From NCBI GenBank assembly GCA_016871995.1, contig VHBL01000007.1, positions 695 through 32,694 of the forward strand: a stretch of DNA of 32,000 nt. The letters are read 5' to 3'. The notes under the pieces were generated by a model, which saw only the letters and a list, made by a program, of their open reading frames with translations, did not search any database and was not told the DNA's origin. Origin of the DNA: Nitrososphaerota archaeon (GTDB taxonomy: Archaea; Thermoproteota; Nitrososphaeria; Nitrososphaerales; UBA57). Positions 1 through 19,750 of this stretch are shown here, piece by piece (position 1 is the first letter of the stretch; each line of letters opens with the position of its first letter). The translations under genes and the position numbers were made by a program.

Positions 1-1477
1 CTATAACAGGGGTAACATAATGATCTGGTCAATCGGCGGAGCGGCTGAAGGGACCTGGGGCGGAAGGTCATATGTTGCAGGTCACGATATTACGACGGGT
101 CAGCTGAAATGGAGATTTTTCTACATCCCACCATGCGGAGATCCAGCAACATGCAAGCCTCTATTCCAAAGGGAGAAGCAAGAATGGGGCAACTGGCTAG
201 TACAAAATTGCAATAAGATATGGATACAAGCCATAAGATCATGCACACTAGATCAGGATCTATTAAGAAACGACTTTGGAAACATGAGGTTCAACTCTGG
301 AGTAAGCAATGTGTGGGGAACTTATGTAGTTGACCAAGAAACTGGCATAGTCTACTTTGGAACTGCGCAGGCAGGGCCAGACTGGAATGCAACGCATGCA
401 CCTGGCTTCAGACTGTTCGGAGCTTCAGTAATAGCACTTAATGCTGGAACAGGAGAGCTTGTATGGGCACATCAGACTACAGCACGGGACCTATGGGACT
501 ATGACTGCTCATGGAATACAGTACTTGCAAATGCAAAGATAAAGGGACAGAATAAGAAAGTAGTCATAAAGGGTTGCAAGAACGGAGTTGTACACGTACT
601 AGATGCGGCTACAGGAGAGCTGATACACTTCCTGCAGAGTCCTGACATAAAGAGAACGCCTGAGCAGTTGTTAGGTAATAGGGAATGGGGTGGTATAACC
701 TACGATCCAAGGAGTAAGGAGCTTATGACGAAGCCGTGGACTAATTACCCAAGCAAAGATCCATTCTGGATGAACTGCCCAGTCACCGGGTGCCTCGAGT
801 CAGACATTGCATATGATCCAACAAGGAACATGGTGTATGCGGGTACCTATAATGCACCTACATGGAGCAGAGTTACAAACGTTGACCACAGAGGAGCGAG
901 CTTAGGAGGACAAATAAATCCGGCTGGTTTTCCTGCACCATACTCACCAAAGATCAACTCAACAATCAATGCTTGGGACCTAGACACTGGTCAATTGAAA
1001 TGGAAATATTTCATCAATGATAAAGGCTTCAGAGGAGGAGTGTTGGTCAGCGGAGGACTAGTATGGTTCGCTGCAGTAGACGGAATCGCGAGAGCTCTAG
1101 ATGCTGATACTGGAAAAGTCCTCTATGAGCAAAACCTTGGTATTTCGACATTAATTCAACCAACAATAGCCGCAGATGCTGATGGCAAGGTGAAGCTCTT
1201 CAGAGTTGTTGGAGGGCGTGCACTTGGCGCACTCCTTGGTCCTGGCGTAGGGTCAGATGTACCTGGAGCAATAATGGCCTATGGTCTAAGCGACAATATT
1301 CCAGCACCAAAGGAAGTCATAAAGGAAGTACCAAAGGAAGTCATAAAGGAAGTACCAAAGGAAGTCATAAAGGAAGTAACAGTGGAGACGGTTTCTCCGA
1401 TATCCTACGCTATAGTAGGGATAGGAATCATCGTAGCTGTAGTAGGTATAGTAGCATCAAGAAGAAAGAAGGCATAG
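1..1477 (+). CDS. PQQ-like beta-propeller (quinoprotein dehydrogenase-like) protein, 5'-truncated by window edge, C-terminally membrane anchored
   Basis: The frame stays open upstream of the ATG at 20, to the window edge. Repeated propeller blade motifs are present (TTGQLKWRF, GTGELVWAH, ATGELIHFL, DTGQLKWKY, DTGKVLYEQ). The C-terminus has a (KEVIKEVP)x3 spacer, one TM helix and an RRKKA tail. Confidence 0.75.
   Translation, partial: YNRGNIMIWSIGGAAEGTWGGRSYVAGHDITTGQLKWRFFYIPPCGDPATCKPLFQREKQEWGNWLVQNCNKIWIQAIRSCTLDQDLLRNDFGNMRFNSGVSNVWGTYVVDQETGIVYFGTAQAGPDWNATHAPGFRLFGASVIALNAGTGELVWAHQTTARDLWDYDCSWNTVLANAKIKGQNKKVVIKGCKNGVVHVLDAATGELIHFLQSPDIKRTPEQLLGNREWGGITYDPRSKELMTKPWTNYPSKDPFWMNCPVTGCLESDIAYDPTRNMVYAGTYNAPTWSRVTNVDHRGASLGGQINPAGFPAPYSPKINSTINAWDLDTGQLKWKYFINDKGFRGGVLVSGGLVWFAAVDGIARALDADTGKVLYEQNLGISTLIQPTIAADADGKVKLFRVVGGRALGALLGPGVGSDVPGAIMAYGLSDNIPAPKEVIKEVPKEVIKEVPKEVIKEVTVETVSPISYAIVGIGIIVAVVGIVASRRKKA
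1307..1378 (+). repeat. Perfect 24-bp tandem repeat x3 (ccaaaggaagtcataaaggaagta), encoding PKEVIKEV x3
   Basis: Three identical consecutive 24-nt units read directly at 1307-1330, 1331-1354 and 1355-1378, in frame within the CDS. Confidence 0.95.
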
Positions 1478-1484
1478 CAGAAGA

Positions 1485-1512
1485 GCCCCGAAGAGGGGCA
1501 CCTATTATTTTT
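1485..1512 (+). terminator. Hairpin (gcccc-gaaga-ggggc) followed by a T-rich tract (ttattttt)
   Basis: It starts 8 nt after the stop codon. The paralog at the other window end has the same hairpin plus ATTATTTTT layout downstream. Confidence 0.4.
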
Positions 1513-1563
1513 CAAACGCTTTTCCGTTCGTAGTAATATGTCGTAATTTGCGATTATTTTTGG

Positions 1564-1575
1564 TGGACCGGGAGG
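1564..1575. repeat. att core, distal copy (TGGACCGGGAGG)
   Basis: Identical to the complement of the last 12 nt of tRNA-Ala (10633-10644). The following 10 nt match 6/10 (tatttgaata versus gattcgaacc). Confidence 0.7.
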
Positions 1576-1804
1576 TATTTGAATATGTTTAGGTTCAAAT
1601 ACCTTACTTTTAGAGGTAATTTATGATATGTCAGTATGTCAGTTAAGGGTTAAATGGGTTTGATTCTTGCTTATTCTAACAATCAGAGCAATTTCTGAAG
1701 GGGTATATATAGGGGTTGGCGGATTGTAGTCTAAGGTCGCTTATCCTCTAGGTCTTTGACTTCCTTAATTTTGGATTTCCTCATTCGTCTTCTAATGTCA
1801 AGAC

Positions 1805-2389
1805 CTACTCAGCCCGAGGCTTTTGGGTATTCAATTCTAAGAGTTTTAGTTTGCTCTCATAATACTTGTCCATATCAGGAACCTTCGCAAGGATATCCAC
1901 CAATAGAAGGGACTGCTGCATTATACCCAAACTTATTACATGTAGCCTTATCGGATCGTGGCTCAGGGGTGTCTCTGATTTCCTTGAAATCAGCATATCT
2001 CGTAAAATAGAATTTGTAAGCATGTCAACCATGTCCCTCCAATATCTGCTATCACCTTCTCCCCTGCGAAGATGCTCGGCTATTTTGGTTCGGTTATGCA
2101 CAACTCTTACGAGTCTTGCACCGAGTTCTATCAACCATTGGCTATATCCATCCTTGGAGAACTCATAAACAGCGTTTGGAGGAAAGACCTTCTCTTTGTG
2201 CCTTAAAATGACACCTTCTTTTTCAAGCCAGTCAAGATACTTTCGCAGTGATGCGGTTCCTATACCCTTCCCCTTCTCTTGAATCTCCCGCCAAGGTTTA
2301 GGCTTCCCATCAGAAAATAATTTTAGAATGAAGTTCATAATACGGTTTTCATCAGAAAGAACCCTCTCTTCAAGATTGGTCATTTCCAT
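1805..2389 (-). CDS. Winged-helix DNA-binding protein (putative element regulator)
   Basis: The N-terminal segment ENRIMNFILKLFSDGKPKPWREIQEKGKGIGTASLRKYLDWLEKEGVILRHK looks like a wHTH. The ATG at 2389 is preferred over the TTG at 2419 because it lies 33 nt from the shared TATA box. Confidence 0.55.
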   Translation of the reverse strand: MEMTNLEERVLSDENRIMNFILKLFSDGKPKPWREIQEKGKGIGTASLRKYLDWLEKEGVILRHKEKVFPPNAVYEFSKDGYSQWLIELGARLVRVVHNRTKIAEHLRRGEGDSRYWRDMVDMLTNSILRDMLISRKSETPLSHDPIRLHVISLGIMQQSLLLVDILAKVPDMDKYYESKLKLLELNTQKPRAE

Positions 2390-2396
2390 AAATGGC

Positions 2397-2463
2397 TCAT
2401 ATTTCAGTATCAAAAACAAACTTTATAAACATGTTGTTTTCATATTTCAGCATCGAAAACAAA
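2397..2463. promoter_or_regulatory. Divergent promoter/operator: palindromic TATA box TTTATAAA (2422-2429) flanked by two 24-bp direct repeats
   Basis: tcatatttcagtatcaaaaacaaa (2397-2420) and tcatatttcagcatcgaaaacaaa (2440-2463) match 22/24. The TATA box is 33-34 nt from both divergent ATGs (2389 minus strand, 2463 plus strand). Confidence 0.5.
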
Positions 2464-2624
2464 TGAAAAAGCAAACCGAATACATCACCCTGTGTTTAGA
2501 CATGGAGACTTTCAAGCGCCTCGAGGCCCGAGCAGAGCAGGAAGAAAGAAAACCGGGGCAGCTTGCACGATTGATTTTGAAAAAAGTGCTTGGAACCGAA
2601 GAGGAGGTTGCAATCGCAGCATGA
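2463..2624 (+). CDS. Ribbon-helix-helix (CopG/Arc-like) protein, 53 aa
   Basis: MKKQTEYITLCLDMETFKRLEARAEQEERKPGQLARLILKKVL fits a beta-strand/helix/helix RHH pattern. This is the internal ATG of track ORF 2328-2624, placed directly after the promoter repeats. Confidence 0.65.
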   Translation: MKKQTEYITLCLDMETFKRLEARAEQEERKPGQLARLILKKVLGTEEEVAIAA

Positions 2625-2848
2625 AGGTTTCACTCGCGAGGACGAAGGGCTACGTTTCGAAATTACCAGTGTCGACTTTCAAAAACATCATTTTGGCCGA
2701 GCGTGATGAAATTGAGCTCTCTGACCTGATTTCGAAACTTGAAACTTGGGAAATTCTACTCAATCAAGAAATGAGCTTTCGGGAGAAGTCCGGTTCAACG
2801 AAACTTCTCCCGGCTGCAGAGCCGGTTTCTTTAGGAGGCCCTGTGTAA
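2621..2848 (+). CDS. Hypothetical protein, 75 aa
   Basis: An ATGA start/stop overlap with the RHH gene suggests translational coupling. It is followed 1 nt later by the prim-pol GTG start. I recognise no motif. Confidence 0.4.
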   Translation: MKVSLARTKGYVSKLPVSTFKNIILAERDEIELSDLISKLETWEILLNQEMSFREKSGSTKLLPAAEPVSLGGPV

Positions 2849-2849
2849 A

Positions 2850-3680
2850 GTGTTTACAGTCAATGCTGATATTAAAACGTTAACGCTTCAGGGGTTCATT
2901 AAGCTCTATCTTGAGTGGGGTATTTCTTTTGTACCTCTAATATACAAAGACAAAGCTCCGGCTCTTCAAGAAGGCGAGATTTACAAGTATCGGAAGAGGC
3001 AACCCAACGAACAAGAGATAAAAAGATGGTTTTACAATGGCTCGCAACATGGCATAGCTGCTGTTTGTGGTTTCAATAACTTAGTATGCTTGGATTTTGA
3101 CGATCGGAAGACATTCGAAGCCTACATAGCTGGAAGGCCCTTACCAGAAACTTTCATAACAAAGAGTGCCAGAGGCGTCCATCTTTACTTCATCAACGAT
3201 AAGCCAATTGGTAGTATGAGATACGAGGGCTTGAAAGTCGAACTGCTGGGGGCGTGGCATCTTTCAACGCTTCCGCCCTCTTTGCATCCTTCTGGCATTC
3301 AACATTCAATACTCAACATGCGTCCGATCAAATCGGTATTTGGAATTGAGACGGCATTTAACGCATTTGCAAAGTCTCAGGGTATAGACACTAAGAAATC
3401 TTCTAAGGCCATCACAAAGGCAGATTTAACGGGAATCGTCCCTGAGGGGATTAGGCACGAAACGGCAAAGAATTATGCTAAGCACCTCATTAGAGGCTTA
3501 AAACTAGATAGTACAACGTCTCTGTTCGAGCTTCAACGCTGGAATGAGAAGCATTGCGTACCTCCCCTTCCTGAAGGGGAACTCATAGACCTAGTACGGT
3601 ATTTCAGCTCGAAGCAAAGGCAGATTTCTGCAGATTTGACCGAGGAGTTTGCAAAAAGGAGGGGTAGCTTTGCAGAGTGA
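2850..3680 (+). CDS. Bifunctional DNA primase-polymerase (prim-pol, archaeo-eukaryotic primase superfamily)
   Basis: Motifs LVCLDFDD (DxD), ARGVHLYF (sGxGxHxyF-like) and VELLG...LPPSLHPSG. GTG start with GGAGG 12 nt upstream. Confidence 0.85.
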   Translation: MFTVNADIKTLTLQGFIKLYLEWGISFVPLIYKDKAPALQEGEIYKYRKRQPNEQEIKRWFYNGSQHGIAAVCGFNNLVCLDFDDRKTFEAYIAGRPLPETFITKSARGVHLYFINDKPIGSMRYEGLKVELLGAWHLSTLPPSLHPSGIQHSILNMRPIKSVFGIETAFNAFAKSQGIDTKKSSKAITKADLTGIVPEGIRHETAKNYAKHLIRGLKLDSTTSLFELQRWNEKHCVPPLPEGELIDLVRYFSSKQRQISADLTEEFAKRRGSFAE

Positions 3681-5007
3681 ACTTTCCACAATCGCTTTGA
3701 CAGAAGACACTAAACCATATGAAGTTGCAGAGGCATACCTTCAAGCAGCTTTTGTAAAGACATTTTTTGACTCGAGTGAGATAGTCCTCTATCACGAAAA
3801 AGGGGTTTATGTTAGAAACGCCGAATGGATAATTGCAAAGGACATCGAAGAGGTCTTTCATAAGAAGAAGTTAGATAAACTTCTGACTAACAACTTCCTT
3901 ACTGAAGTTCTAGGTCATATAAGGAGGAGAACTTATGTTAACCGCTCAGAGTTTGATAAAGAGCCTTTTATTCTTAATCTAAAGAATGGATTACTCAATG
4001 TACAAACAGGGGAATTTACAAAGCACAGTCCTGAGCATCTCTCTTTAGTACAGTTTCAGGTTGAATACAATCCGAAGGCGAATTGCCTTAAGATAGCAAA
4101 GTTCCTTTCAGAAGTGTTATTCCCTGACGATCTCCAATGTGTACAAGAATACGTTGGTTTCTGTTTATGGAAAGAGTACACGGTTGCAAAGGCTCTCTTA
4201 CTCGTTGGAGAAGGTGGAAACGGGAAGTCAACTTTCATTTTATTGATTAAGGCATTAATCGGAAGTGAAAATACCTCCTCAGTTTCACTTCAAGAATTGG
4301 AATATAACAGATTTGCGAAAGCAGATTTGTACGGAAAGCTAGCTAACCTCTATGCAGATCTTCCTGATGAAGCTCTAAAGAGCGCTGGGGTTTTCAAAAT
4401 GTTGACCGGCAAAGATCCAATAAGGGGAGAGTACAAATTCAGAAATTCCTTTCCCTTTGTCAATCTTGCAAAGTTGATTTTTAGTGCTAATAAGGTTCCA
4501 GAGTCATATGAAGATACGACAGCATTCTTTCGGCGTTGGATAATTATTCTATTTCCTTTTACATTCATAGGCAAGAATGAGAACAAAGACCTCGTCAATG
4601 AGCTGACAACGGAAGAGGAGCTTTCAGGCTTCTTGAATTGGGCTTTAGAAGGGCTGCAAAGACTTAGAGCTAACGGTTGGAACTTCAGTAATAGTAGGAG
4701 CGTAGAAGAGGTCAGGGAAGAGTACATTCGAAAATCCTCCCCGATACAAGCTTTCATCATGGATTGTATTGATATTGATAGTTATAGCGAAATTCCGAAA
4801 AAACAGCTATTCGATAAGTTTCTTGAGTACTGTAAGAGCAAGAAACTACCTGCTCCTTCAGATCAGACCTTTTTCAAGAAATTACCTCGATTTGTCAACA
4901 TAACTGACACTAGGCCGGAGGTTGGCGGAAAGAGAGTTCCCTGTTTCAAAGGGATCAAACTAAAGGAAGAGGAGGGCGTAAGAAACGCTCAAGCAAAGAT
5001 TAGTTAA
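3649..5007 (+). CDS. D5/P4-primase-type superfamily 3 helicase (NTPase)
   Basis: Walker A LVGEGGNGKST, downstream LANLYADLPDE, and a C-terminal region typical of phage/plasmid primase P4-family helicases. The in-frame TTG at 3670 sits 7 nt after GGAGG (3658-3662) and is an equally likely start. Confidence 0.85.
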   Translation: MQKGGVALQSELSTIALTEDTKPYEVAEAYLQAAFVKTFFDSSEIVLYHEKGVYVRNAEWIIAKDIEEVFHKKKLDKLLTNNFLTEVLGHIRRRTYVNRSEFDKEPFILNLKNGLLNVQTGEFTKHSPEHLSLVQFQVEYNPKANCLKIAKFLSEVLFPDDLQCVQEYVGFCLWKEYTVAKALLLVGEGGNGKSTFILLIKALIGSENTSSVSLQELEYNRFAKADLYGKLANLYADLPDEALKSAGVFKMLTGKDPIRGEYKFRNSFPFVNLAKLIFSANKVPESYEDTTAFFRRWIIILFPFTFIGKNENKDLVNELTTEEELSGFLNWALEGLQRLRANGWNFSNSRSVEEVREEYIRKSSPIQAFIMDCIDIDSYSEIPKKQLFDKFLEYCKSKKLPAPSDQTFFKKLPRFVNITDTRPEVGGKRVPCFKGIKLKEEEGVRNAQAKIS

Positions 5008-5018
5008 CTCTTCTGACA

Positions 5019-5117
5019 TTAAGATAGGAAAAACCCCTGACAGAGTTGACAGGGTTGACGGAACTAGGGTTTTTGCGTCAGGGCTGTCAGGGCTGTCAAC
5101 CCATTTCCCTATCTTAA
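5019..5117. repeat. Inverted iteron array, candidate replication origin of the element
   Basis: Outer perfect 10-bp inverted repeat ttaagatagg (5019-5028) / cctatcttaa (5108-5117). Left arm has three 9-bp-spaced TGAC units (tgacagagt, tgacagggt, tgacggaac from 5037). Right arm has gtcagggct x2 plus gtcaaccc (5077-5102). gggttgac (5052-5059) and gtcaaccc (5095-5102) are perfect inverted 8-mers. Confidence 0.5.
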
Positions 5118-5359
5118 GTTCCGAAAGCCCAAAGGCTAACCCTTCAACCTTAGACTATTGGATCCAAAGTCCGAAACTTAACGCTAGGTTAACTCTAATC
5201 AAAGAAAAACCCTCTAAACTTAACGGGTTAACTATTCCTTCCTTCAGGCTAGGAATAAAATGCTCTGAGCATAAAGACCTTCAATATAACAATCCAATTT
5301 CATGGAGAGATCACTACCTCTTAACGCATGGCTTGATATTTGAAGAGGAGCAAAGTTAG

Positions 5360-5599
5360 ATGCCGAAAGCTAGGCTTGAAAGCGAAGGCAGTTATGAGAG
5401 ATGGCTTAGTCAGGTTGCGAAGTTTAGCAATCGCTTTAGCCCTTACAAAATTCCCAGAACAAAGGAGCATGGAATAAGGAAGAGGCCGAAGCCTGAGCAT
5501 GAAGCTACAATCAGATACGAATGTAAGCCATGTGATCTAACCTTTCAGAATTTAGATTTGTACGAGATTCACAATGCGCTCAAGCATAAAGCAGGATAG
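5360..5599 (+). CDS. C2H2 zinc-finger protein, 79 aa
   Basis: YECKPCDLTFQNLDLYEIHNALKH has C-x2-C-x12-H-x4-H spacing. Confidence 0.6.
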   Translation: MPKARLESEGSYERWLSQVAKFSNRFSPYKIPRTKEHGIRKRPKPEHEATIRYECKPCDLTFQNLDLYEIHNALKHKAG

Positions 5600-6275
5600 T
5601 GTTAGCAAATTGCAAACAATCAAGAATAAACGCAAAGGAAAGATGCTCCAACCTGAGGTTGCTCAAAAATGGGAAGCTCTGAAGCAATCTCTAAACTTCA
5701 GATCGGATAACGAATTTGCCAATGCTCTTTTAGAAACTCAGAAGGATCGCTTAGTCCCCTTTGTCAGCCATGAAACTGTATTTAATTCACCTGCTCCAAC
5801 TCTCATAATTGGGGAGCCGGGTTCAAGAAAAACAACCTTAGTTAAGCAGTTAATCCCTTCAATTCGAAATTCTATCCTATGCATTGATCCCCATAGCGAG
5901 TACTTAGAATTGGAGCAGTTCAACGGGAAGGGAGAGGTTGTTAGCAAAGTCCCCTTAGGTTTCGAAATACTGAAGGGTTCGATGATTGACTTTAGCAGGA
6001 AACAACGATTGAGGTTTATCCCTTCACAAAACCCCTTTGTTTCTGAAGCTGAGACAACTAGCCTCTTTATGAGTTTGAATGAAAGCAGGGAAAAAATGAA
6101 GGGTTGGACTCTAATCGTTGACGAATGTCATAGGTTCTCAGGTAATAGTTTATTCCGAAGCTTCATAACAGAGAGTAGAAAGTATTCGATAAAGTCAATT
6201 TTGATAACTGCTGATTATGCGAAGTTTGAAGGGTTGGGCTATTTCCTAAGGCCTGCTCCAATTGGAAGGGCTTGA
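5574..6275 (+). CDS. Small HerA/FtsK-like P-loop ATPase
   Basis: Deviant Walker A IIGEPGSRKTT, a HerA-like ILCIDPHSEY motif, and Walker B/sensor TLIVDECHRF. An alternative start is the ATG at 5643 (MLQPEV). Confidence 0.6.
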   Translation: MRSSIKQDSVSKLQTIKNKRKGKMLQPEVAQKWEALKQSLNFRSDNEFANALLETQKDRLVPFVSHETVFNSPAPTLIIGEPGSRKTTLVKQLIPSIRNSILCIDPHSEYLELEQFNGKGEVVSKVPLGFEILKGSMIDFSRKQRLRFIPSQNPFVSEAETTSLFMSLNESREKMKGWTLIVDECHRFSGNSLFRSFITESRKYSIKSILITADYAKFEGLGYFLRPAPIGRA

Positions 6276-6584
6276 ATGTTTCCAATCGTCATATCCCCTG
6301 AAATTACAATAGTCATCTTCGGCGTGATAGTCTTACTTACCCTTCTGTTTCTTCAATCCCTAATATCAGGGTTCGGCTTAAGGGCCATTACTCGTTTCAT
6401 TGTGGCAATCTTGACCCTGCTCGGTTTTGCACTGGGCCTGATGCCATTTATCCTGAACTCAGCAGGCTCTTCGATGGAGCTTTCAATTTTTACTCTGGTC
6501 TTTTTATCAATTGGCCTTTCGGTGTCTAGCTTCGCTTTGAGTTTTTTGATAATAAGACCCTCTGCCAGTCATGCCAGAGCCTAG
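6276..6584 (+). CDS. Small integral membrane protein (about 3 TM helices)
   Basis: The ATG directly abuts the ATPase stop (TGAATG). The protein has three long hydrophobic segments. Confidence 0.5.
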   Translation: MFPIVISPEITIVIFGVIVLLTLLFLQSLISGFGLRAITRFIVAILTLLGFALGLMPFILNSAGSSMELSIFTLVFLSIGLSVSSFALSFLIIRPSASHARA

Positions 6585-6787
6585 AATTTTAGTTAATAGC
6601 TGATCTAAGAAGGGGTACTATCACACGTACACACACTAATAGCAAATCTCAATCAAAATTTGTTATTTTGTTCGTGATCTGTCAAATTCAAAAATTCCGT
6701 CTAGCTGTGGATTGACCAAATCAAATTCAGCAGTTAACTTTCAAATCTTATCAGGCGACAAAAAGAATTGCCCAAAGATGTTAAAGA

Positions 6788-6841
6788 TGGTAAAGATGCC
6801 GAACAACCGTCTGTTAGCATTATTTAATTAGTTGTGGTATA
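6788..6841 (+). CDS. Candidate micro-ORF A1, 17 aa (MLKMVKMPNNRLLALFN)
   Basis: Paralogous to A2. The C-terminus PNN(R)LLxxFN-stop is conserved and the one indel is exactly 3 nt (cgt), so the frame is preserved. Confidence 0.3.
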
Positions 6842-6966
6842 TTGAGCGTCGCCCAATCAAACAATCCTAAAGTTAACCGAAGCTCTGTCAATGATTGATG
6901 TTGACGATGTGGGTGAACAAGAAGAGATTGCCCGTCTATAGATATATTATTTCTATATTGGTAGTT
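6809..6966 (+). repeat. Duplicated intergenic module, copy 1
   Basis: Aligns with 8105-8252. It shares a perfect 38-nt block (ctaaagttaaccgaagctctgtcaatgattgatgttga) and a perfect 22-nt block (tctatagatatattatttctat). Confidence 0.9.
6901..6951 (+). CDS. Candidate micro-ORF B1, 16 aa acidic peptide (MIDVDDVGEQEEIARL)
   Basis: Same length, start and stop position as B2. The first 7 residues are identical and the middle diverges while staying acidic. Confidence 0.3.
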
Positions 6967-7027
6967 GTCGGGCTAGTTTGGAGAATGAGTATGTTTTTAT
7001 TTTTGTTGTCAAGTAGATGTAAAAGAC

Positions 7028-7990
7028 ATGGATAACGCTCTAATTAACAAAATTGAAGGCTCTCTTCTAAAATTAAGAATGTATCAAGCGCAGAGAACTC
7101 TCAGCATAGAAAAATATTGGCAAATGACATCTTTTACAAAGTTAAGGAGTCGGTTCTCGGAAAAATATGCTTATGCTAACAGATACGATTGTTCGGCTTT
7201 CATGTTAGACTTTTGGAATAAAAAATGCCTTGAACTAGAAAAGAGATTCCTTCCATACCCCCCCTTTTCTTTTCTAAGGGACAAGACAATCAGAGCCACA
7301 ATGAATATATCTGAAGGTTATGCTTTCTGGCTCTTACAAAAGTATCTCCAATTCCTAGAAACGAGACTTTCTGAAGATTACCTATCGAATATGCTTCAAG
7401 AAGATTATGTTGGAGAGCAAATCATTCTTAATTCAAAATACATGACTTCGTATGAAACTGTCCAGCATCTTTATCACTTCTTAAAATTAGCTGATTTTGG
7501 ATGCAAAATAGATGATGTATCAAGCGTTGTAGAATGGGGAGGAGGATATGGTGATATGGCGAAGCTTTTTGTCAGAATGAACTCAAATAGAAACGTCAGC
7601 TATACAATAATAGATATTCCCATAATGTCCTGCCTTCAATGGCTTTATCTTTCAAGTATTTTTGGTGAAGGGAAGGTTAAGATTATCCAAGACAGAGGTG
7701 AGCGAATTGATAACGGGAAAATAAATTTGCTTCCTATATCTCTGGTTGAAAAATGCGATATTAACGCTGATCTATTCATATCTACATGGGCTTTAAGCGA
7801 ATGTACTAATTATGCTCAAGATTACGTGGTCAATAAGAACTGGTTCAACGCTAGAAACATCTTGCTCGCCTATCAATATAACACTTCAGAGGTTCCAAAT
7901 GCTGAAAGGTTAGGCAGGTTAGCAGAGCAAAGTGGAGCAAATGTGCAAGAAATGGAGATAGTGCCAAGACATCATTATGCTTTTCGGTAA
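7028..7990 (+). CDS. Class I SAM-dependent methyltransferase (possibly sugar/small-molecule O-methyltransferase-like)
   Basis: Glycine-rich SAM-binding motif VVEWGGGYGDMAKLF followed by an acidic-loop pattern (YTIIDIP). No DNA-MTase (D/S)PPY motif. The gene is visibly AT-rich. Confidence 0.55.
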   Translation: MDNALINKIEGSLLKLRMYQAQRTLSIEKYWQMTSFTKLRSRFSEKYAYANRYDCSAFMLDFWNKKCLELEKRFLPYPPFSFLRDKTIRATMNISEGYAFWLLQKYLQFLETRLSEDYLSNMLQEDYVGEQIILNSKYMTSYETVQHLYHFLKLADFGCKIDDVSSVVEWGGGYGDMAKLFVRMNSNRNVSYTIIDIPIMSCLQWLYLSSIFGEGKVKIIQDRGERIDNGKINLLPISLVEKCDINADLFISTWALSECTNYAQDYVVNKNWFNARNILLAYQYNTSEVPNAERLGRLAEQSGANVQEMEIVPRHHYAFR

Positions 7991-8077
7991 CGGGGTTCAA
8001 TTTAGGCTATTTCTACCACATGGTAAATATTGAATGTATAAATCTAATTAGAAGGCAGAAGATAGTACCTGTTAATA

Positions 8078-8134
8078 ATGGGACTGATGGGATTGGTGGA
8101 AATCCCGAACAACCTGCTAGGTAGATTTAATTAA
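8078..8134 (+). CDS. Candidate micro-ORF A2, 18 aa (MGLMGLVEIPNNLLGRFN)
   Basis: See A1. Confidence 0.3.
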   Translation: MGLMGLVEIPNNLLGRFN

Positions 8135-8252
8135 TTAGTTATGGTGGGACAATCAAACTATTCTAAAGTTAACCGAAGCTCTGTCAATGATTGATGTTGA
8201 TGATGTTGACGAAGGGGACGATGATGCCGGTCTATAGATATATTATTTCTAT
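8105..8252 (+). repeat. Duplicated intergenic module, copy 2
   Basis: Same direct repeat as 6809-6966, with several indels. The two copies bracket the methyltransferase gene. Confidence 0.9.
8187..8237 (+). CDS. Candidate micro-ORF B2, 16 aa acidic peptide (MIDVDDVDEGDDDAGL)
   Basis: See B1. Confidence 0.3.
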   Translation: MIDVDDVDEGDDDAGL

Positions 8253-8437
8253 GCTGATAATAGTTTGATTAGTTAACTTAGTGCAAAGTCCCTAGTATAG
8301 TCAGGCTCAAACCCTAGCTGACAAAGGCATGTTTCGGCATGGGTCCCCCTAGCCAAACAAAGAGGAAATTGGTTAACTCTTATTCAATATTCTCCTAGAA
8401 ACTTAACTTTAATAACCTGCAGGGACTATATCAAATC

Positions 8438-9052
8438 ATGCAAAGTCATTTAGTTTTGAAGGGAGCAGAAGAGCTGATTAAGGAAGAGCTAGGGGATAAT
8501 CCTGCTCAGGATCAGAAGGTCAAGGTTTATGCTTCTCATTTAGCAGATAGATGCACTCAGTTATCAGGGGAAACATGGACTTCTAAGAACTGCACAAACT
8601 CTTTGCGATCTTACGGGCTTTGGGATAGCGAACGGTTTCCAACTTTGCAGGGGAAATACGGCTTCTACGTTTTAGTTTCTTTGAATGACCTAAAGCAATT
8701 GAACCTCTGGGAGTGCTATGTATGCAATAGCAGGATCGTCAAAGGTCAGGGTAATGTTTGGCCTCATATCTTTGAATGTTGGGTAGAAGGGGTTTCCTGC
8801 TCTAATTTATATTGTAATACCGTTGTTAAATCCTATGAAGAGGTACTTGAACATGAAAAAAATTGTCAGGTTTCTTTTATACCCTATAACTATGGTAGTT
8901 GCCCTGCCTGCAATGCGAAAATAAAACTATCAGAAATCAGAAGGCATGTCAATCAATGCAAAGATATCTTATCATGGGAGGAGCCTGAGCAACCTAGCAC
9001 AAAGGAAACAGAAACCCCTAGCATAATCGAAGTTAAGAATGAAGCGCCCTAG
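8438..9052 (+). CDS. Cysteine-rich protein with three CCHC zinc-finger motifs
   Basis: CYVCNSRIVKGQGNVWPHIFEC (C-x2-C-x13-H-x3-C), CSNLYCNTVVKSYEEVLEHEKNC (C-x4-C-x12-H-x3-C) and CPACNAKIKLSEIRRHVNQC (C-x2-C-x11-H-x3-C). Confidence 0.6.
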   Translation: MQSHLVLKGAEELIKEELGDNPAQDQKVKVYASHLADRCTQLSGETWTSKNCTNSLRSYGLWDSERFPTLQGKYGFYVLVSLNDLKQLNLWECYVCNSRIVKGQGNVWPHIFECWVEGVSCSNLYCNTVVKSYEEVLEHEKNCQVSFIPYNYGSCPACNAKIKLSEIRRHVNQCKDILSWEEPEQPSTKETETPSIIEVKNEAP

Positions 9053-9275
9053 AAGAGTCAATCAGGATCTTCTAGCCATAATGCAAAGGTACGGGATTAG
9101 TGAAGATGGTGAAGTTAGTGAAGGCAGTGAAGGTAAAAAACACCCCCCATTATTTCCAGAAGTTCGTCAATTAACTAATAAAGATTCGTCAGAAAAAACA
9201 GGGGAGGCTCTGGGAAGTTCACCACCTTCACCAAGTTCAGTAACTTCAGTAGATAAAGTCAGGAAGGCAGTTTGA
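9039..9275 (+). CDS. Hypothetical low-complexity (S/E/P-rich) protein, doubtful
   Basis: This is an ORF only. It overlaps the upstream gene by 14 nt and the convergent integrase 3' end by 17 nt. Confidence 0.2.
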   Translation: MKRPRRVNQDLLAIMQRYGISEDGEVSEGSEGKKHPPLFPEVRQLTNKDSSEKTGEALGSSPPSPSSVTSVDKVRKAV

Positions 9276-10578
9276 TGATCGCTTTATCGTTAGGGATATG
9301 CGTTGCAAATTCCCAACCCTGCAATATGTAATTCTCCAATTCGTTAAGAGGAATAACCTTCTGCCTTGATCCATTACCCGTTAACATCTCTCTGTACTTC
9401 TTAGCGATAAGCTCCTGAAACTCTTTGCTAGTTATGTTTGCCAAATCTAGTTTAGCGATCTCCCCTTCTGAATAACCTAAATCTGCCAATAGAGCAGCTC
9501 TAAACCCTCCTCTAACATCTTGCTGAGAGCTGATAACCCTAGTCTGCAAATATTCCTTTGAAGCTTTAGCATAGGAAGCTCTCATATCCTCTATTACGCT
9601 CTCAGGTAGTTTGTGCTTATTCGTTGTGTACCTAGCTTCGATATCCCCTTTATGTCCCATGAAAAAGACCCTATAATCTCTTAGAATGAGGCCCTTACTC
9701 TCAGCTAACATCATTTCAGTATCAAAATAACTTCTTAGAACATAGGGCCTCCATGAAAAACCTGCTTCCCTTATGGGACCTCTGAGAGCATCACCAATAT
9801 TGTTAGACCTGATAAACGGCCTGTCAGCTGCTTTGAATGTTGGTGATTTCGCTTTAATGAGAGGGGACTCTGGATCGAATTTACTAGTACCATTCCCCCT
9901 TAACCTGCTCTCAAGATAGTCTTTGAGATATTCGCAAGCCTCTTCATTCAGGAAGCTAAAGTATTGATGTCTTGCTTTGCTAAGTTGCGATCTGACAATA
10001 ACCCTAGCAGGAATAACCGTAAAATTGACCTCTGACCCCTTGATCTCAAGCTCAGGAATATCCATAACTCTGAGTCCGTCAGAGCCGTCATAATTGCCAA
10101 TACTTTCAAGCCTAAGGCCTGCAAAGCACACTAAGGAGGCCGTTGTCTTAACCTTCGGATCGGCAAAGGATAGTATCTTAACCAATTCCTTCTGAGTTGG
10201 GACTCTCTCTTCCTTCAGTGAAGGGGTTTCGTCAGCTCCTTTGACCTTGATTTTTCTTTTAACTTCAATCCCATGATGAGAGAGCCATGACTTTACATTC
10301 TTTAACCTGCTTTCAACATAAGAGCCTGCATATTTCTGCCTCTCCATAGAGCTGACATAATCCATAAGGAGATTATAGAGGTCCTGCTCATTCAGCTTCA
10401 AAAGGTCTTTAGGTTGCTTTCTAACATTCTGACAGAAGTTTCCTAGTCCACGAAGATAAACGTCAGCTGTTGTTATTGCACCCCTAGCAACATTCTCATA
10501 CCATCTTTTGATATCAGGGTCTTTAAGGAGGGCTTGATGTTCACCTTTGCCTTTTTCCCTATACTTCCCCTTAGCCAT
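9259..10578 (-). CDS. int: Tyrosine recombinase/integrase (intact, pNOB8-type arrangement)
   Basis: Catalytic-type motifs FAGLRLESIGN (Arg), YVLRSYFDT (Arg) and GHKGDIEARYT (His...Tyr). The start is set at MAKGKYREKGK (10578) because the 32 upstream codons of the track ORF are read-through of the tRNA gene. Confidence 0.85.
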   Translation of the reverse strand: MAKGKYREKGKGEHQALLKDPDIKRWYENVARGAITTADVYLRGLGNFCQNVRKQPKDLLKLNEQDLYNLLMDYVSSMERQKYAGSYVESRLKNVKSWLSHHGIEVKRKIKVKGADETPSLKEERVPTQKELVKILSFADPKVKTTASLVCFAGLRLESIGNYDGSDGLRVMDIPELEIKGSEVNFTVIPARVIVRSQLSKARHQYFSFLNEEACEYLKDYLESRLRGNGTSKFDPESPLIKAKSPTFKAADRPFIRSNNIGDALRGPIREAGFSWRPYVLRSYFDTEMMLAESKGLILRDYRVFFMGHKGDIEARYTTNKHKLPESVIEDMRASYAKASKEYLQTRVISSQQDVRGGFRAALLADLGYSEGEIAKLDLANITSKEFQELIAKKYREMLTGNGSRQKVIPLNELENYILQGWEFATHIPNDKAIIKLPS

Positions 10579-10632
10579 AACACTAAGTCTAAAAGATTGC
10601 ACTAGATAAGGGTATCTGAACCCGTTTATAGA

Positions 10633-10644
10633 TGGACCGGGAGG
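10633..10644. repeat. att core, tRNA-proximal copy (3' acceptor strand plus discriminator of tRNA-Ala)
   Basis: Same 12-mer as 1564-1575. Confidence 0.7.
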
Positions 10645-10706
10645 GATTCGAACCCTCGACCCCCACCATGCCAAAGTGGTATCCTACCAGGCTAGACGAC
10701 CGGCCC
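10633..10706 (-). tRNA. tRNA-Ala (anticodon GGC)
   Basis: Manual cloverleaf: acceptor GGGCCGG/CCGGTCC with the alanine identity pair G3:U70, anticodon arm CCACT-TTGGCAT-GGTGG, T arm GAGGG-TTCGAAT-CCCTC, discriminator A. Length 74 nt. Confidence 0.9.
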
Positions 10707-10820
10707 ATGTTCAGAAAGTGATCTTAAAGCGCGTTTTGGAGTCCTTATTTGGTTTTTCTAATCCAATCGAAACTTAGCCCTAGTGTAGTTGTACATTTTT
10801 GACTGCAAATAAGATTAATT

Positions 10821-17016: not shown

Positions 17017-17958
17017 ATGGGGACCACGCATAAGGTAATTTTTGGTAATTCGCTGAACATGAAAGAGTTGCGGAGGAACAGTATTCATTTGGTAGTAACT
17101 TCTCCGCCATATTTTAACGCGCCTTTCGATTATCCAGATTTTTTCAAAACCTACAAGGATTTTCTAGCACTTATCAAAGGTATGGCGAAGGAGCTTAAAC
17201 GAGTAGTCGCACCGGGCAGAGTTTGTTGCTTTGTTGTAGATGACATGCTTGTGGACGGTGAAAAGTTCCCTGTTGTTTCAGATGTTACACAAATAATGAC
17301 ACGATCAGGTTTCAGATATCGAGACAGAATAGTTTGGATAAAGCCCAAAGGCTATGTTAGGATTAGTCGGAGAAGCGGAGTTCTGTTGCAACATCCCTAT
17401 CCGATGTATTTCTATCCTGACAACATGCAAGAAAGCATCCTTATCTTCCAAAAGGGGAAGTTTGATTATTCTTATCTTAAAACTCTGCCTGCTGAGGTCT
17501 TGGCTAGATCAAAGATAGATGTCAAGGAGTTCAATCTTACGGATGCGCCCTTTATGGTTTGGGACGACCTAAGCGGGGAGGAAAGAAAACCTATTCCAAA
17601 CACGTGGCGGATCACTAATGTTCTGCCGATGAAAGGACGTTTGGAAGAGGGTGTGGCTGCCTTCCCCGGAGAAATCGCTAGACGGCTGGTAAAGCTGTTT
17701 ACATTTATTGGAGAGACTGTGCTTGACCCATTTGCAGGCTCGGGCACCACGCTCAAGGTTGCAAAAGAGTTAGGAAGGAATTCGGTTGGTTATGAAATTG
17801 ATTTGGAGCTTAAGCCAGTCATCGCAGAAAAACTTGGACTTGAACAAGCTACACTTTCGAACGACGCAGTCGAGTTTCTAGAAAGAGATGATGCGGGTCA
17901 TTTCCGAACCACCCTACAGGAAAAAGTGGAGCATAAAGAGAGTGTCGCTACAAGATGA
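17017..17958 (+). CDS. Beta-class DNA methyltransferase (N4-cytosine or N6-adenine)
   Basis: Motif IV VVTSPPYFN lies near the N-terminus and SAM motif I LDPFAGSGTT near the C-terminus (IV before I defines the beta class). Confidence 0.85.
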   Translation: MGTTHKVIFGNSLNMKELRRNSIHLVVTSPPYFNAPFDYPDFFKTYKDFLALIKGMAKELKRVVAPGRVCCFVVDDMLVDGEKFPVVSDVTQIMTRSGFRYRDRIVWIKPKGYVRISRRSGVLLQHPYPMYFYPDNMQESILIFQKGKFDYSYLKTLPAEVLARSKIDVKEFNLTDAPFMVWDDLSGEERKPIPNTWRITNVLPMKGRLEEGVAAFPGEIARRLVKLFTFIGETVLDPFAGSGTTLKVAKELGRNSVGYEIDLELKPVIAEKLGLEQATLSNDAVEFLERDDAGHFRTTLQEKVEHKESVATR

Positions 17959-18147
17959 GCGCATCAGAATAACTGCTGAAATTACTGGTATAAAATATGT
18001 TCCGAAACTTGGAAGGACGCTACACGAATTTTATATCTCATCACTGGCGGAGGCACTTTCGACAGATGTGTCGTTTTTTAGAAACGGATGATTGTACGTT
18101 AAGGGTTTATCTTGGATTTGGGCTGATTCTGGCGATGTTTTTTGTAG

Positions 18148-18222
18148 TGGGCCAGGGCGGACTTGAACCACCGACCTTCGCTGTGTAAGAGCGATGTCCT
18201 AACCAAGCTAGACGACTGGCCC
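18148..18222 (-). tRNA. tRNA-Val (anticodon UAC)
   Basis: Manual cloverleaf: acceptor GGGCCAG/CTGGCCC, anticodon arm TCGCT-CTTACAC-AGCGA, T arm GGTGG-TTCAAGT-CCGCC, discriminator A. Length 75 nt. Confidence 0.9.
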
Positions 18223-18286
18223 GAGCTGAGCCAGAACTTGCATTTTCTAATAAGCATTCTAACTTCATATTTTATTTCTGCAGGTC

Positions 18287-19750
18287 TTATTTCTTTATCC
18301 TGAAGCAAAGGCGTTTGATTTTGAACTCCCCGGGTGAAAGCTTGCAGAGCCAATCATGCACCCTCTGCCTGAGCTCCACCGCTATGTCCATGGTAATGCT
18401 GAGTTCTTCATCGGTAAAGTCTCCATGCGGGCTAATTATCTTGAGAATTCCGCTTGCAAGTTTCCTGATGCTCTTTTCGTCGCGAATCCCGAGATTTCCT
18501 CCCTCTGCTGAAAGTTCTACCCTCTCGGCAATATGGTGCTGAAAGTCTTCCTTCCTTAGCTGGTTCATGACCTCGCAGAAATACTGCGAAACGAATCCGT
18601 AACTCTTTGAAAGATGCAGATCGCTCTGCATGATCTTTGGCAGTTCCCAGCCAGGGATGAATCCGTGAATCCTATCGACAAAAGCAGAATCCCGCATGCA
18701 TTCAGGAATGACCCCTGAAAATTCTTCGCCAGGCAGGTTTCCCTTCACCTCTATATTACCCATGAAGACGAGCGAGCACGTGCTTCTGACGCGCTTTAGC
18801 ATGCCTCTTTCAAATTCGCCACTCTCCATGTAGTCTTTCAGTTTGCCCATCATCTCCTCAGGGTTTGCGAACTCGATCTTGCTTATTTCATCGAAGACTA
18901 CGCATTCCCTGACCCCTATCTCCCCCAGAGTCTTGAAGTTGCCATGATAGAATAACACTGCAGGGCTGACCTTTCCCCCTGAAAAGAGCCTTGTATAGTA
19001 TGAAATATTCTTGAAAAGAAACGATTTGCCTGTGGCTCTTGGTCCGAGCTCCAAGACGTTTACGTTCTGCTCGACCAGCGGGATGAGCCTCGAAAGCAGA
19101 AGCAGCTTCTGCCTGCGTGAATAGACTTCTGGGTTGAGCCCTATTGTATTGATTATTGAGGACATCCACTCTTCAGTTGAAAAATGCTTCCTCTTCCCGT
19201 TGAACTCCTCTATGTTGAAAGTAGAATACTGGAGGGGTTCGAACTCGGTCATGATGATTGGGGAGTTCAGCTCCTGCTGGGTTCCGTAGTTGAACTCTGG
19301 TGAATAATTTATTGTAGCAACTCCCCAAATGCCCGCCTCGAGAAGGTCTTTTTGCTTCTCGAGTAGGGATGCCCTGATTCTTGCATTGTAAATGCCCAGG
19401 CACGGCACTTCGACTCTGTGAATGCCATTTTTGATATCTACGCGTACCTTGAATTCGTCCAAAAGCGTGTATTGGCCTTTAGTAAATAGCTCGTGCAGGA
19501 CCCTGTCCTTCATCTTAGCTTCAGGGTAGTAGCGATTGACAAACTTGGCCATTTCTGCAAGGTCCTTGGGCTTGACACTGTCTCCGCAGAAACGCTTGAT
19601 AGCAGACTCGGCTATGAATCTTGGCAGTCTGCTAACCTCACGCAGCTCGTAAAGTTTCTTGTTGACTATCTGGTCAGGGAAGTTCCTCTTGAGCTTCGAA
19701 TCTAGAAGCTCCTGAGGGCTCTTCACTGACTGGGTAATCGTGGCTGGCAC
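18287..19750 (-). CDS. BrxL-like ATPase (Lon_2/TIGR02688 family) without a C-terminal Lon protease domain
   Basis: FSTEEWMSSIINTIGLNPE, RQKLLLLSRLIPLVEQNVNVLELGPRATGKSF (Walker A), VVFDEISK (Walker B) and DSAFVDRIHGFIPGWELPK follow the BrxL ATPase-domain pattern. It is 487 aa, versus roughly 680 aa for full BrxL as I recall it. Confidence 0.75.
   Translation of the reverse strand: MPATITQSVKSPQELLDSKLKRNFPDQIVNKKLYELREVSRLPRFIAESAIKRFCGDSVKPKDLAEMAKFVNRYYPEAKMKDRVLHELFTKGQYTLLDEFKVRVDIKNGIHRVEVPCLGIYNARIRASLLEKQKDLLEAGIWGVATINYSPEFNYGTQQELNSPIIMTEFEPLQYSTFNIEEFNGKRKHFSTEEWMSSIINTIGLNPEVYSRRQKLLLLSRLIPLVEQNVNVLELGPRATGKSFLFKNISYYTRLFSGGKVSPAVLFYHGNFKTLGEIGVRECVVFDEISKIEFANPEEMMGKLKDYMESGEFERGMLKRVRSTCSLVFMGNIEVKGNLPGEEFSGVIPECMRDSAFVDRIHGFIPGWELPKIMQSDLHLSKSYGFVSQYFCEVMNQLRKEDFQHHIAERVELSAEGGNLGIRDEKSIRKLASGILKIISPHGDFTDEELSITMDIAVELRQRVHDWLCKLSPGEFKIKRLCFRIKK

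Follow-up and report, generated by a model that had tools for sequence, protein, structure and literature searches.

A duplicated intergenic module ahead of two cargo genes of a thaumarchaeal integrated element: a candidate control region

INTRODUCTION

Why should the same intergenic sequence stand twice, in the same orientation, ahead of two different cargo genes of a single integrated element? The question is raised by a 32,000-nt stretch of DNA from a Nitrososphaerota archaeon (contig VHBL01000007.1, positions 695 to 32,694; this whole stretch is referred to below as the window). ENA contig ERZ27247963 k141_436973 and a JGI contig are identical to the window. That the host is a thaumarchaeon follows from a protein of a Thaumarchaeota metagenome-assembled genome (MAG), which is 100% identical to the neighbouring 233-aa product. 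Both copies of the sequence, here termed the module, lie in the cargo part of a ~9.1-kb element integrated at tRNA-Ala(GGC) (window 1557-10707), one upstream of a methyltransferase-like gene and the other upstream of a Zn-finger gene. An initial annotation of the window had taken two micro-open reading frames (micro-ORFs) in each copy for translated peptides. The reading favoured here is that a cryptic integrated element (CIE) of a thaumarchaeon has its non-coding control region in duplicate, with one copy ahead of each of the two cargo genes, and we judge its chances of being correct to be about even.

RESULTS AND DISCUSSION

The duplicated module

The module copies, their perfectly conserved blocks and the two cargo genes are as follows.

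6788-6978, + strand: module copy 1, upstream of the methyltransferase-like gene (repeat families D1, D2 and D5, and alignment A1)
8094-8274, + strand: module copy 2, upstream of the Zn-finger gene
6867-6904: perfect 38-nt block, CTAAAGTTAACCGAAGCTCTGTCAATGATTGATGTTGA, in copy 1, with a palindrome and the TATA/B recognition element (BRE)-like CTAAAGTTAAC at 6867-6877
8163-8200: perfect 38-nt block in copy 2, with CTAAAGTTAAC at 8163-8173
6934-6956: perfect 23-nt AT-rich block, GTCTATAGATATATTATTTCTAT, in copy 1; TATA-like, and absent from the related loci L014 and L012
8230-8252: perfect 23-nt AT-rich block in copy 2
7028-7990, + strand: cargo gene 1, for a NanM-like putative sugar O-methyltransferase (320 aa), with its own TTTTTATTTTT at 6994-7004
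8438-9052, + strand: cargo gene 2, for a C2HC Zn-finger protein (204 aa; PF18574), with its own TTTAATAA at 8408-8415 (-30 to -23 from the ATG)

The duplication is real and non-random. Repeat scans and alignment reveal a direct repeat of ~190 bp, with exactly two copies in the window, both in direct orientation; the initial annotation had correctly recognized the repeat but had bounded it at 6809-6966 and 8105-8252, whereas similarity reaches 6788-6978 and 8094-8274. It had likewise given the perfect blocks as 38 and 22 nt, the second of which is in fact 23 nt long. Both blocks have two matches in the window, against none expected. Within an ungapped core, 102/125 positions are identical between the window copies; when the mismatch positions were shuffled 100,000 times, an identity run of 38 nt proved rare (P = 0.0018), and runs of at least 38 and at least 23 nt together were never obtained. 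The 29 nt between the perfect blocks contain 12 mismatches and are free of indels. The ungapped register shifts along the repeat from 1306 to 1307 to 1296, which the simplest DNA alignment explains by two indels in the left part of the repeat, one of 1 nt and one of 11 nt.

The modules are held in spacers of 443 nt (6585-7027) and 447 nt (7991-8437), neither of which contains an ORF of 60 aa or more, as the initial annotation had stated. Copy 1 ends 50 nt before the ATG of the methyltransferase gene and copy 2 ends 164 nt before that of the Zn-finger gene. Short-read Logan contigs of the same strain (L004, L005 and L029) end inside the modules, at ~6875, 6890, 6896 and 8192; the repeat fragments assemblies, and module copies may be under-represented among public contigs.

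Conserved islands and a palindrome

A third copy of the module is found in L014 (3666-3781), where it is 82% identical to 8097-8212, the left part of copy 2; L013 and L015 exactly equal L014 over the part of the module that they contain. Common to the three copies is a series of islands, namely CCGAACAACC, TTAATTAGT, ATGGT or GTGGT, CAATCAAAC, TAAAGTTAAC, GTCAAT-N-ATTGA and GATGTTGAC-GA, which are set apart by spacers of variable sequence and fixed length. One of these spacers is formed by the 9 nt that follow TAAAGTTAAC: 8/9 positions differ between copy 2 and L014, a change that exceeds the 19% divergence at four-fold sites (P = 9e-5), yet the length is unchanged and TAAAGTTAAC itself is kept. 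Conserved islands, at fixed spacing and with free sequence in between, look like protein-binding DNA, and not like coding sequence or folded RNA.

One of the islands, the palindrome, is a candidate binding site.

6887-6899: palindrome GTCAATGATTGAT in copy 1; its core, TCAAT-G-ATTGA (6888-6898), holds the ATG of micro-ORF B (6891-6893)
8183-8195: palindrome in copy 2

Its counterpart in L014, GTCAATCATTGAC, is a perfect 6+1+6 dyad in which 11/13 positions are kept, such that the form across copies is GTCAAT(G/C)ATTGA, with TCAAT-N-ATTGA in all three. The central G is replaced by C in L014, which retains the symmetry and removes the ATG of ORF B. Dyad symmetry is, therefore, kept across the three copies independently of the flanks, as would be expected of an operator.

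A second motif connects the module with the remainder of the element. The hexamer GTTAAC occurs at 12 sites in the window, against 5.1 expected, and 11/12 of these fall inside the element (P = 9e-6); eight of the element's sites, mostly of the form GTTAACTnT, lie in or at the edge of spacers, and similar sites are present in the spacers of L016 and L017.

GTTAAC sites: 5003, 5188, 5227, 6733, 6872, 8168, 8272 and 8372; also 2879, 3937 and 9380

A 21/22-nt motif, AAACTTAACGG(G)TTAACTATTC, is shared in inverted orientation between the window (5215-5236) and L014 (3617-3637), where it lies directly upstream of the module; the two elements are otherwise different. Homology of the module to the spacer at 5008-5359 was considered and rejected as not significant, save for this motif shared with L014.

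Promoter-like signals and a putative operator

The 38-nt block contains a TATA-like octamer with an A-rich BRE and resembles promoters of the same genome on both strands. On the + strand, ACAATC-CTAAAGTT resembles ACAATC-TTAAATTC in the promoter of a host TENA/THI-4-family gene, whose TATA box lies at -30 to -23; on the - strand, GTTAAC-TTTAGRAT resembles TTAAC-TTTAATAA of the Zn-finger gene and AAC-TTTATAAA at 2420-2430. AACTTTA is common to the module, the Zn-finger promoter (TTAACTTTAATAA, TATA box at -30 to -23) and the divergent promoter at 2420-2430. The 23-nt block has likenesses of its own, as GTCTATAT resembles a host promoter (that of the L013 7601 gene), and so does GTCTATA; the repeat ends about where a start from the latter box would fall. 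The - strand of the module also carries one TTGACAGAG. Across 35 upstream regions of this lineage, an AT-rich signal is seen at about -31 to -24. The Thaumarchaeota genomes analysed in PMC6028130 (11/11) were assigned to an archaeal group in which leaderless transcription is frequent and a promoter box lies ~26 nt ahead of leaderless gene starts.

Based on these features, TAAAGTTAAC and its flanks would constitute an archaeal BRE/TATA element, and the palindrome, ~10 nt away, a putative operator, recognized by a dimeric DNA-binding protein of the element's own; candidate regulators would be the Zn-finger protein, whose gene always adjoins the module, or the HxlR-like winged helix-turn-helix (wHTH) protein (1805-2383). 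If the module is read on the + strand, transcription is predicted to start at ~6897 in copy 1 and ~8193 in copy 2, such that the palindrome would lie over the start site; on the - strand, the predicted leftward starts are at ~6841 and ~8137. The promoter may, indeed, be bidirectional.

Archaeal repressor sites usually overlap the start site, as in the BRE/TATA promoters controlled by MDR1, LrpA, Phr and TrmB. The module is comparable: its TATA-like box is AT-rich and flanked by A-rich sequence on the 5' side, and the short palindrome comes at a constant distance after it, close to the predicted start. It differs in its ambiguous orientation, and in that its cargo genes also have proximal TATA boxes. 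Archaea reportedly also use symmetric, bidirectional TATA promoters, said to have been described by Warman et al. in 2021. In keeping with these, the TAAAGTTAAC / GTTAACTTTA box is plausible on both strands and the divergent promoter of the element (2422-2429) is symmetric, whereas the module has neither flanking divergent genes nor a conserved product on either side.

The initial annotation had offered, as its alternative to peptides, a promoter or leader duplicated in front of each cargo gene, or scars of cassette recombination. Control and recombination are indeed what we favour, but the part of a core promoter does not fit, since each cargo gene has its own TATA box ~30 nt before the ATG; the module would, therefore, be an additional, distal control region. 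A sigma-70 near-consensus on the - strand of the 38-nt block (TTGACA-16-TAGAAT) was set aside, as the host is archaeal, and neither sigma-70 promoters nor bacterial leader peptides are applicable models; the accompanying scan found no intrinsic terminators.

In a more far-reaching version of this proposal, which we consider distinctly unlikely, the module would be a portable 'cargo adaptor': a regulated, possibly bidirectional promoter/operator, perhaps with tiled micro-peptides (A-D-B), that moves with each cargo gene, provides the homology for cassette swapping and places unrelated cargo under one element-encoded regulator.

Micro-ORFs

Three overlapping micro-ORFs can be drawn in each copy.

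6778-6831, + strand: micro-ORF A1 (17 aa; coding doubtful)
8078-8134, + strand: micro-ORF A2 (18 aa; coding doubtful)
6891-6941, + strand: micro-ORF B1 (16 aa; probably not a gene)
8187-8237, + strand: micro-ORF B2 (16 aa; probably not a gene)
6842-6898, + strand: micro-ORF D1 (18 aa, TTG start; no selection signal)
8141-8194, + strand: micro-ORF D2 (17 aa, ATG start)

The initial annotation listed A and B; its translations of A2, B1 and B2 were reproduced as written, as was that of A1, whose start lies at 6778 instead of 6779. D was absent from its list; it has 17-18 codons, ends at a TGA inside the palindrome, and is open in both window copies and in L014 (3710-3763). The argument for translation had been that the frames survive despite nucleotide change, and A1 and A2 had been said to differ by a single 3-nt indel. 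The latter is not so: there is a 1-nt indel within ORF A and an 11-nt indel just past it, and the shared 'FN*' terminus sits in TTTAATTAATTAG, which has stop codons in every frame. Nor does frame survival exceed chance. Since the stretch between the perfect blocks is free of indels, a frame open in one copy tends to be open in the other as well, and other overlapping frames are equally open in both: a second frame overlapping ORF B (6895-7035 and 8191-8268), for example, and a minus-strand pair starting MFGI... (6741-6806 and 8044-8112). At least four overlapping ORF pairs 'survive' in this manner in different frames or strands, and they cannot all be genes. For genome scans in general, the survival of frames of 12-18 codons across an indel-free repeat carries almost no information.

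It follows that each frame must be judged by its own features if micro-peptides, whether from ORF A (core PNN-LL-x-x-FN), the acidic ORF B (MIDVDDV...) or ORF D, are to account for the module, an explanation that we regard as very improbable. ORF A, like ORF D, is open in L014 as well as in both window copies, and TATA-like stretches lie 35-41 nt upstream of each of its starts, but its length varies between 12 codons in L014 (MEIPNNLLGRFN) and 17 or 18 in the window, with a 1-nt register shift between copies. In ORF D, copy 2 and L014 differ at 6 first, 5 second and 4 third codon positions (counted by inspection), an even distribution.

For ORF B, there are points both for and against coding. 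It is open in both window copies, the two mismatches nearest the perfect block are synonymous, and the corresponding frame in L014, I-I-D-I-A-D-V-D-E, resembles M-I-D-V-D-D-V-D-E. Moreover, its mismatches lean towards the third codon position (3/3/6 over positions 1/2/3 between the window copies and 1/1/5 between copy 2 and L014), which is either a weak coding hint or 9-nt periodicity, and to that extent tells against a wholly non-coding module. The nominal significance of the lean (P~0.02, a rough estimate from few copies) is lost on allowing for three frames, and it is confounded by the 9-nt repeat TGATGTTGA; one of the changes concerned is the loss of the start codon. Indeed, in L014, the sole independent third copy, ATG has become ATC, an in-frame TAA lies three codons upstream and the frame stops after 12 codons, four codons early; the remnant in L012 likewise has no in-frame start. 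The initial annotation had itself named stops in additional copies as grounds for abandoning the micro-ORFs, and such stops are what L014 contains. The position of the ORF B start is also unfavourable: its ATG lies 24 nt past the start of CTAAAGTT, as compared with 28-33 nt for local leaderless genes, which places it 4-6 nt upstream of the predicted transcription start, and inspection of the sequence before it found no Shine-Dalgarno motif. An out-of-frame ATG at 6898 and 8194 matches leaderless spacing better.

The roles that had been proposed for such peptides fare no better than the peptides themselves. Leader or attenuator peptides are not supported in an archaeal host for which no terminator or antiterminator structure is predicted; the module resembles the trp and his attenuators of bacteria in having a short ORF upstream of a gene, and differs from them in its archaeal host, in lacking terminator/antiterminator pairing and runs of regulatory codons, and in that the ORF start is not conserved. 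As for modification substrates of the methyltransferase, the enzyme is probably a NanM-like sugar O-methyltransferase, and nothing ties it to peptide substrates.

A possible non-coding RNA

The arrangement of a conserved block, a variable stretch of fixed length and a second conserved block, together with a promoter-like element that adjoins conserved, transcribed-looking sequence on both sides, could also be that of a small non-coding RNA gene in which the variable 22-29 nt form a specificity region. Two versions may be envisaged: a short + strand RNA running from ~6897 to the T-rich end of the 23-nt block, or a - strand RNA that starts at ~6841 or ~8137 and lies antisense to the region flanking the upstream gene on its 3' side. 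We consider either unlikely. The consensus energies from RNAalifold, calculated over 226 columns, are only -9.1 kcal/mol on the + strand and -7.6 kcal/mol on the - strand; compensatory pairs are all but lacking, and six candidate transcripts fold no better than shuffled controls (z-scores of -0.7 to +1.6). No family is recognized by Rfam, for which only two tRNAs pass the gathering score and nothing in 6550-8450 falls below E = 0.8; the best match there is to snoR113 (E = 0.81; 18.7 bits against a gathering score of 47). A C/D-box small RNA was also considered, as UGAUGA-like strings exist, and was rejected on inspection since the box spacing is wrong (and given the same Rfam E-value of 0.81). 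A guide or antisense role for the variable stretches was likewise dismissed, as their complementarity within the window is not beyond chance, the longest matches being 10-mers, of which 1.6 would be expected.

Related loci and the history of the module

Related loci, reached through homologues of neighbouring proteins, show which parts of the element travel together. L014 occupies a different chromosomal site and has neither methyltransferase nor replication genes; its Zn-finger gene is 81% identical to that of the window, the module together with the Zn-finger gene is 82-86% identical, and the integrase is only ~54% identical. L012 lies at the same tRNA-Ala site, with an integrase region that is 99% identical at the DNA level, and carries a different methyltransferase allele (248-1201, + strand; 317 aa, 49% identity), with a GC content of 61% as opposed to 36% in the window. 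Only 90 nt separate this allele from the ATPase gene and no module precedes it, whilst the Zn-finger spacer of L012 contains module fragments only (GGTTAAC and GATGATGTTGAGGAG). L028 and L016-L018 share the ATPase, and have neither the cargo region nor the module. The L012 slot suggests an independent cargo replacement. The module thus travels with the Zn-finger unit, whilst the left slot has been refilled more than once.

The most likely history is that a unit of module plus methyltransferase recombined in upstream of an existing unit of module plus Zn-finger gene, because it is the left part of copy 2 that resembles L014. On the same grounds we rejected a Campbell-type event, in which a circle carrying the methyltransferase gene would have entered a lone ancestral module: it predicts an L014-like left part in copy 1, and copy 2 matches instead. 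Two ORFs of 89 and 62 aa in the L012 and L014 spacers were examined as a possible hidden gene and rejected, since they are not conserved in the window; a tRNA-like or att-like origin for the left part of the module was also discarded, as ARAGORN and Rfam find only two real tRNAs.

Several observations weigh against the control-region interpretation. Only three independent copies of the module could be compared. Divergence from L014 amounts to 7/77 sites over the left part of the module, not significantly less than that at four-fold sites of the Zn-finger gene (11/58; P = 0.13). Promoter calls are unreliable, given the several AT-rich, TATA-like stretches that the module contains, and both cargo genes have a TATA box at the canonical distance, such that a distal promoter is not needed for their expression. 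Finally, L012 has an intact Zn-finger gene behind a degenerate module and a methyltransferase gene with none, implying that the module is dispensable.

Alternatively, the module could be a functionless by-product of cassette shuffling, its perfect blocks being kept by gene conversion between nearby copies. This is a serious rival, even if we think it unlikely. The region is certainly mosaic, as illustrated by the methyltransferase alleles of 36% and 61% GC and by integrases that are 99% (L012) and 54% (L014) identical; copy 2 and L014 also differ by the substitution of a 9-nt patch, L012 has kept the genes with a degenerate module or none, the divergence of the module from L014 is not significantly below neutral, and assemblies break at the repeat (L004 and L005). 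However, two perfect blocks with 12 mismatches over the 29 nt between them are not what one tract of conversion would produce, and a neutral by-product does not readily explain why spacer lengths stay exact while their sequence is replaced, why the palindrome survives a change at its centre, or why the module shares the element-specific GTTAAC vocabulary.

Two further known systems may be compared with the module. Like the cassettes of integrons, which are separated by attC sites, the cargo genes are separated by a repeated element and show signs of cassette exchange; unlike in integrons, the repeat scans gave only direct copies of the module, with no attC-like imperfect inverted repeat reported, the integrase sits beside a tRNA att site and the cargo genes carry their own promoters. 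Mosaic lambdoid phages are said to have conserved boundary or linker sequences between modules (a description attributed to Clark et al. 2001), and the likeness is that a short conserved intergenic sequence is found at the junctions of swapped modules, with mosaic breakpoints adjoining it; the concept is one from bacterial phages, and with three copies here a role in recombination would be inferred.

Further copies of the module were sought widely. Phage and plasmid blastn gave no match; scans of viral contigs gave nothing related (two matches in one scan proved unrelated), and protein-based viral scans no confirmed relative. An 18-mer scan of genome contigs yielded five matches in unrelated taxa, judged to be chance, and a scan of metagenome contigs with 19 specified bases yielded seven chance matches with no flanking similarity. 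Look-ups by exact protein gave, apart from L012 to L015 and L033, nothing but identical copies of this element.

In L014, 1321-6015 corresponds to 20-10707 of the window: the same PQQ-repeat gene stands on the left flank, and the right flank has EF-G in place of tRNA-Ala/DUF3467. No att repeat or tRNA was found at L014, and its flanks point to a chromosomal rearrangement or a different mode of integration.

Cargo genes

Cargo gene 1 probably encodes a sugar O-methyltransferase, to judge from its matches. Against TIGR04371 (NCBIfam), the window protein scores 41.3 bits, below the cutoff of 44, whereas the L012 allele scores 50.7 and P0127 50.6. The E-W-G-G-G-Y-G sequence (GxGxG motif) is invariant or nearly so in a family of 1514 clusters at 50% identity, and one homologue adjoins a glycosyltransferase; searches of Pfam and the PDB gave marginal matches only, and a single-sequence AlphaFold model was unusable (predicted local distance difference test score, pLDDT, of 36). 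The public gene call at L012 248-1201 is a spurious 346-aa ORF on the opposite strand, the gene caller having missed the methyltransferase.

The Zn-finger protein belongs to a very rare family, with three clusters among 5.8 billion proteins; its homologues are 81-84% identical. It evolves fast: compared with L014 4054-4677 and L012 1598-2197, amino-acid identity (79-86%) roughly equals or falls below nucleotide identity (83-87%), and over 200 aligned codons there are 27, 19 and 39 mismatches at codon positions 1, 2 and 3, respectively. Conservation upstream of the gene extends far past the core TATA box, with ~125 nt (8314-8437) that are 86-88% identical between the window, L014 and L012; this region includes CTAGCTGACAAAGGCAT...TTCGGCATG, and is an ORF in L012 and L014 that is interrupted in the window.

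The integrated element

Outside its cargo, the element comprises the following features.

1557-1583: left attachment (att)-like copy of the tRNA-Ala 3' end, TGGACCGGGAGG, identical at 10626-10652 (repeat family D3)
1805-2383, - strand: HxlR-like wHTH gene
2850-3680, + strand: Prim-Pol, a replication gene
3649-5007, + strand: D5/DUF5906 helicase, a replication gene
5574-6275: 233-aa ATPase, with weak HerA/AAA matches only
6276-6584: 102-aa membrane protein
9259-10578, - strand: tyrosine integrase (PF00589)
10631-10707, - strand: tRNA-Ala(GGC), the integration target

The integrase has more than 2,253 homologues, those with a source name coming from archaeal MAGs (Nitrososphaerota and Bathyarchaeia), and the element has a GC content of 40.5% against 45.3% for the host flank. 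In its architecture, the element matches the CIE class of Thaumarchaeota, which integrate at the 3' ends of tRNA genes, with short att repeats and a tyrosine integrase, and some of which (e.g. CalSub-E1) encode primpol and superfamily-3 helicase as separate genes (Krupovic et al. 2019, PMC6563490). The element likewise has the integrase, att repeats at a tRNA 3' end and separate primpol and helicase genes, and contains no virion or conjugation genes; methyltransferases, moreover, are among the cargo annotations of the class. Duplicated spacer modules ahead of cargo genes are not mentioned in the parts of that survey consulted, and the rarity of the Zn-finger family sets this element further apart.

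The module is a modest addition, one more instance of a familiar type of feature in archaea that have received little study. Regulation and cargo exchange are almost unstudied in the mobile elements of Thaumarchaeota, most hosts having no genetic system, and in this setting a duplicated control region with a palindrome and a GTTAAC vocabulary provides a concrete candidate promoter/operator, together with candidate regulators. The locus also displays cargo turnover at one slot, in the form of sugar-O-methyltransferase alleles of very different GC content, as well as a Zn-finger unit that is shared between elements whose integrases are only ~54% identical.

Other features of the window

Elsewhere in the element, inverted arrays of short repeats of the type TTGACAG(G/A)G surround a T-rich centre at 5030-5105, in the 352-nt spacer after the helicase gene; a replication origin of the element, or a major protein-binding site, would be plausible here. 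The region at 2384-2462 is a symmetric divergent promoter region, with TTTATAAA (2422-2429) midway between the HxlR-like gene (- strand, start 2383) and a gene for a 53-aa product (+ strand, start 2463), and is flanked by direct repeats, CATATTTCAG; it looks like the main regulatory switch of the element.

In the host flank, genes for an N6_N4 DNA methyltransferase and a BrxL (BREX) ATPase stand either side of tRNA-Val (17017-19750), which could be the remnant of a defence island. Ahead of the element, at 1303-1386, five in-register copies of a 36-nt unit, spaced 12 nt, give the PQQ-repeat protein KEVxKEV-type repeats close to its C-terminus; these are also present in the L014 orthologue.

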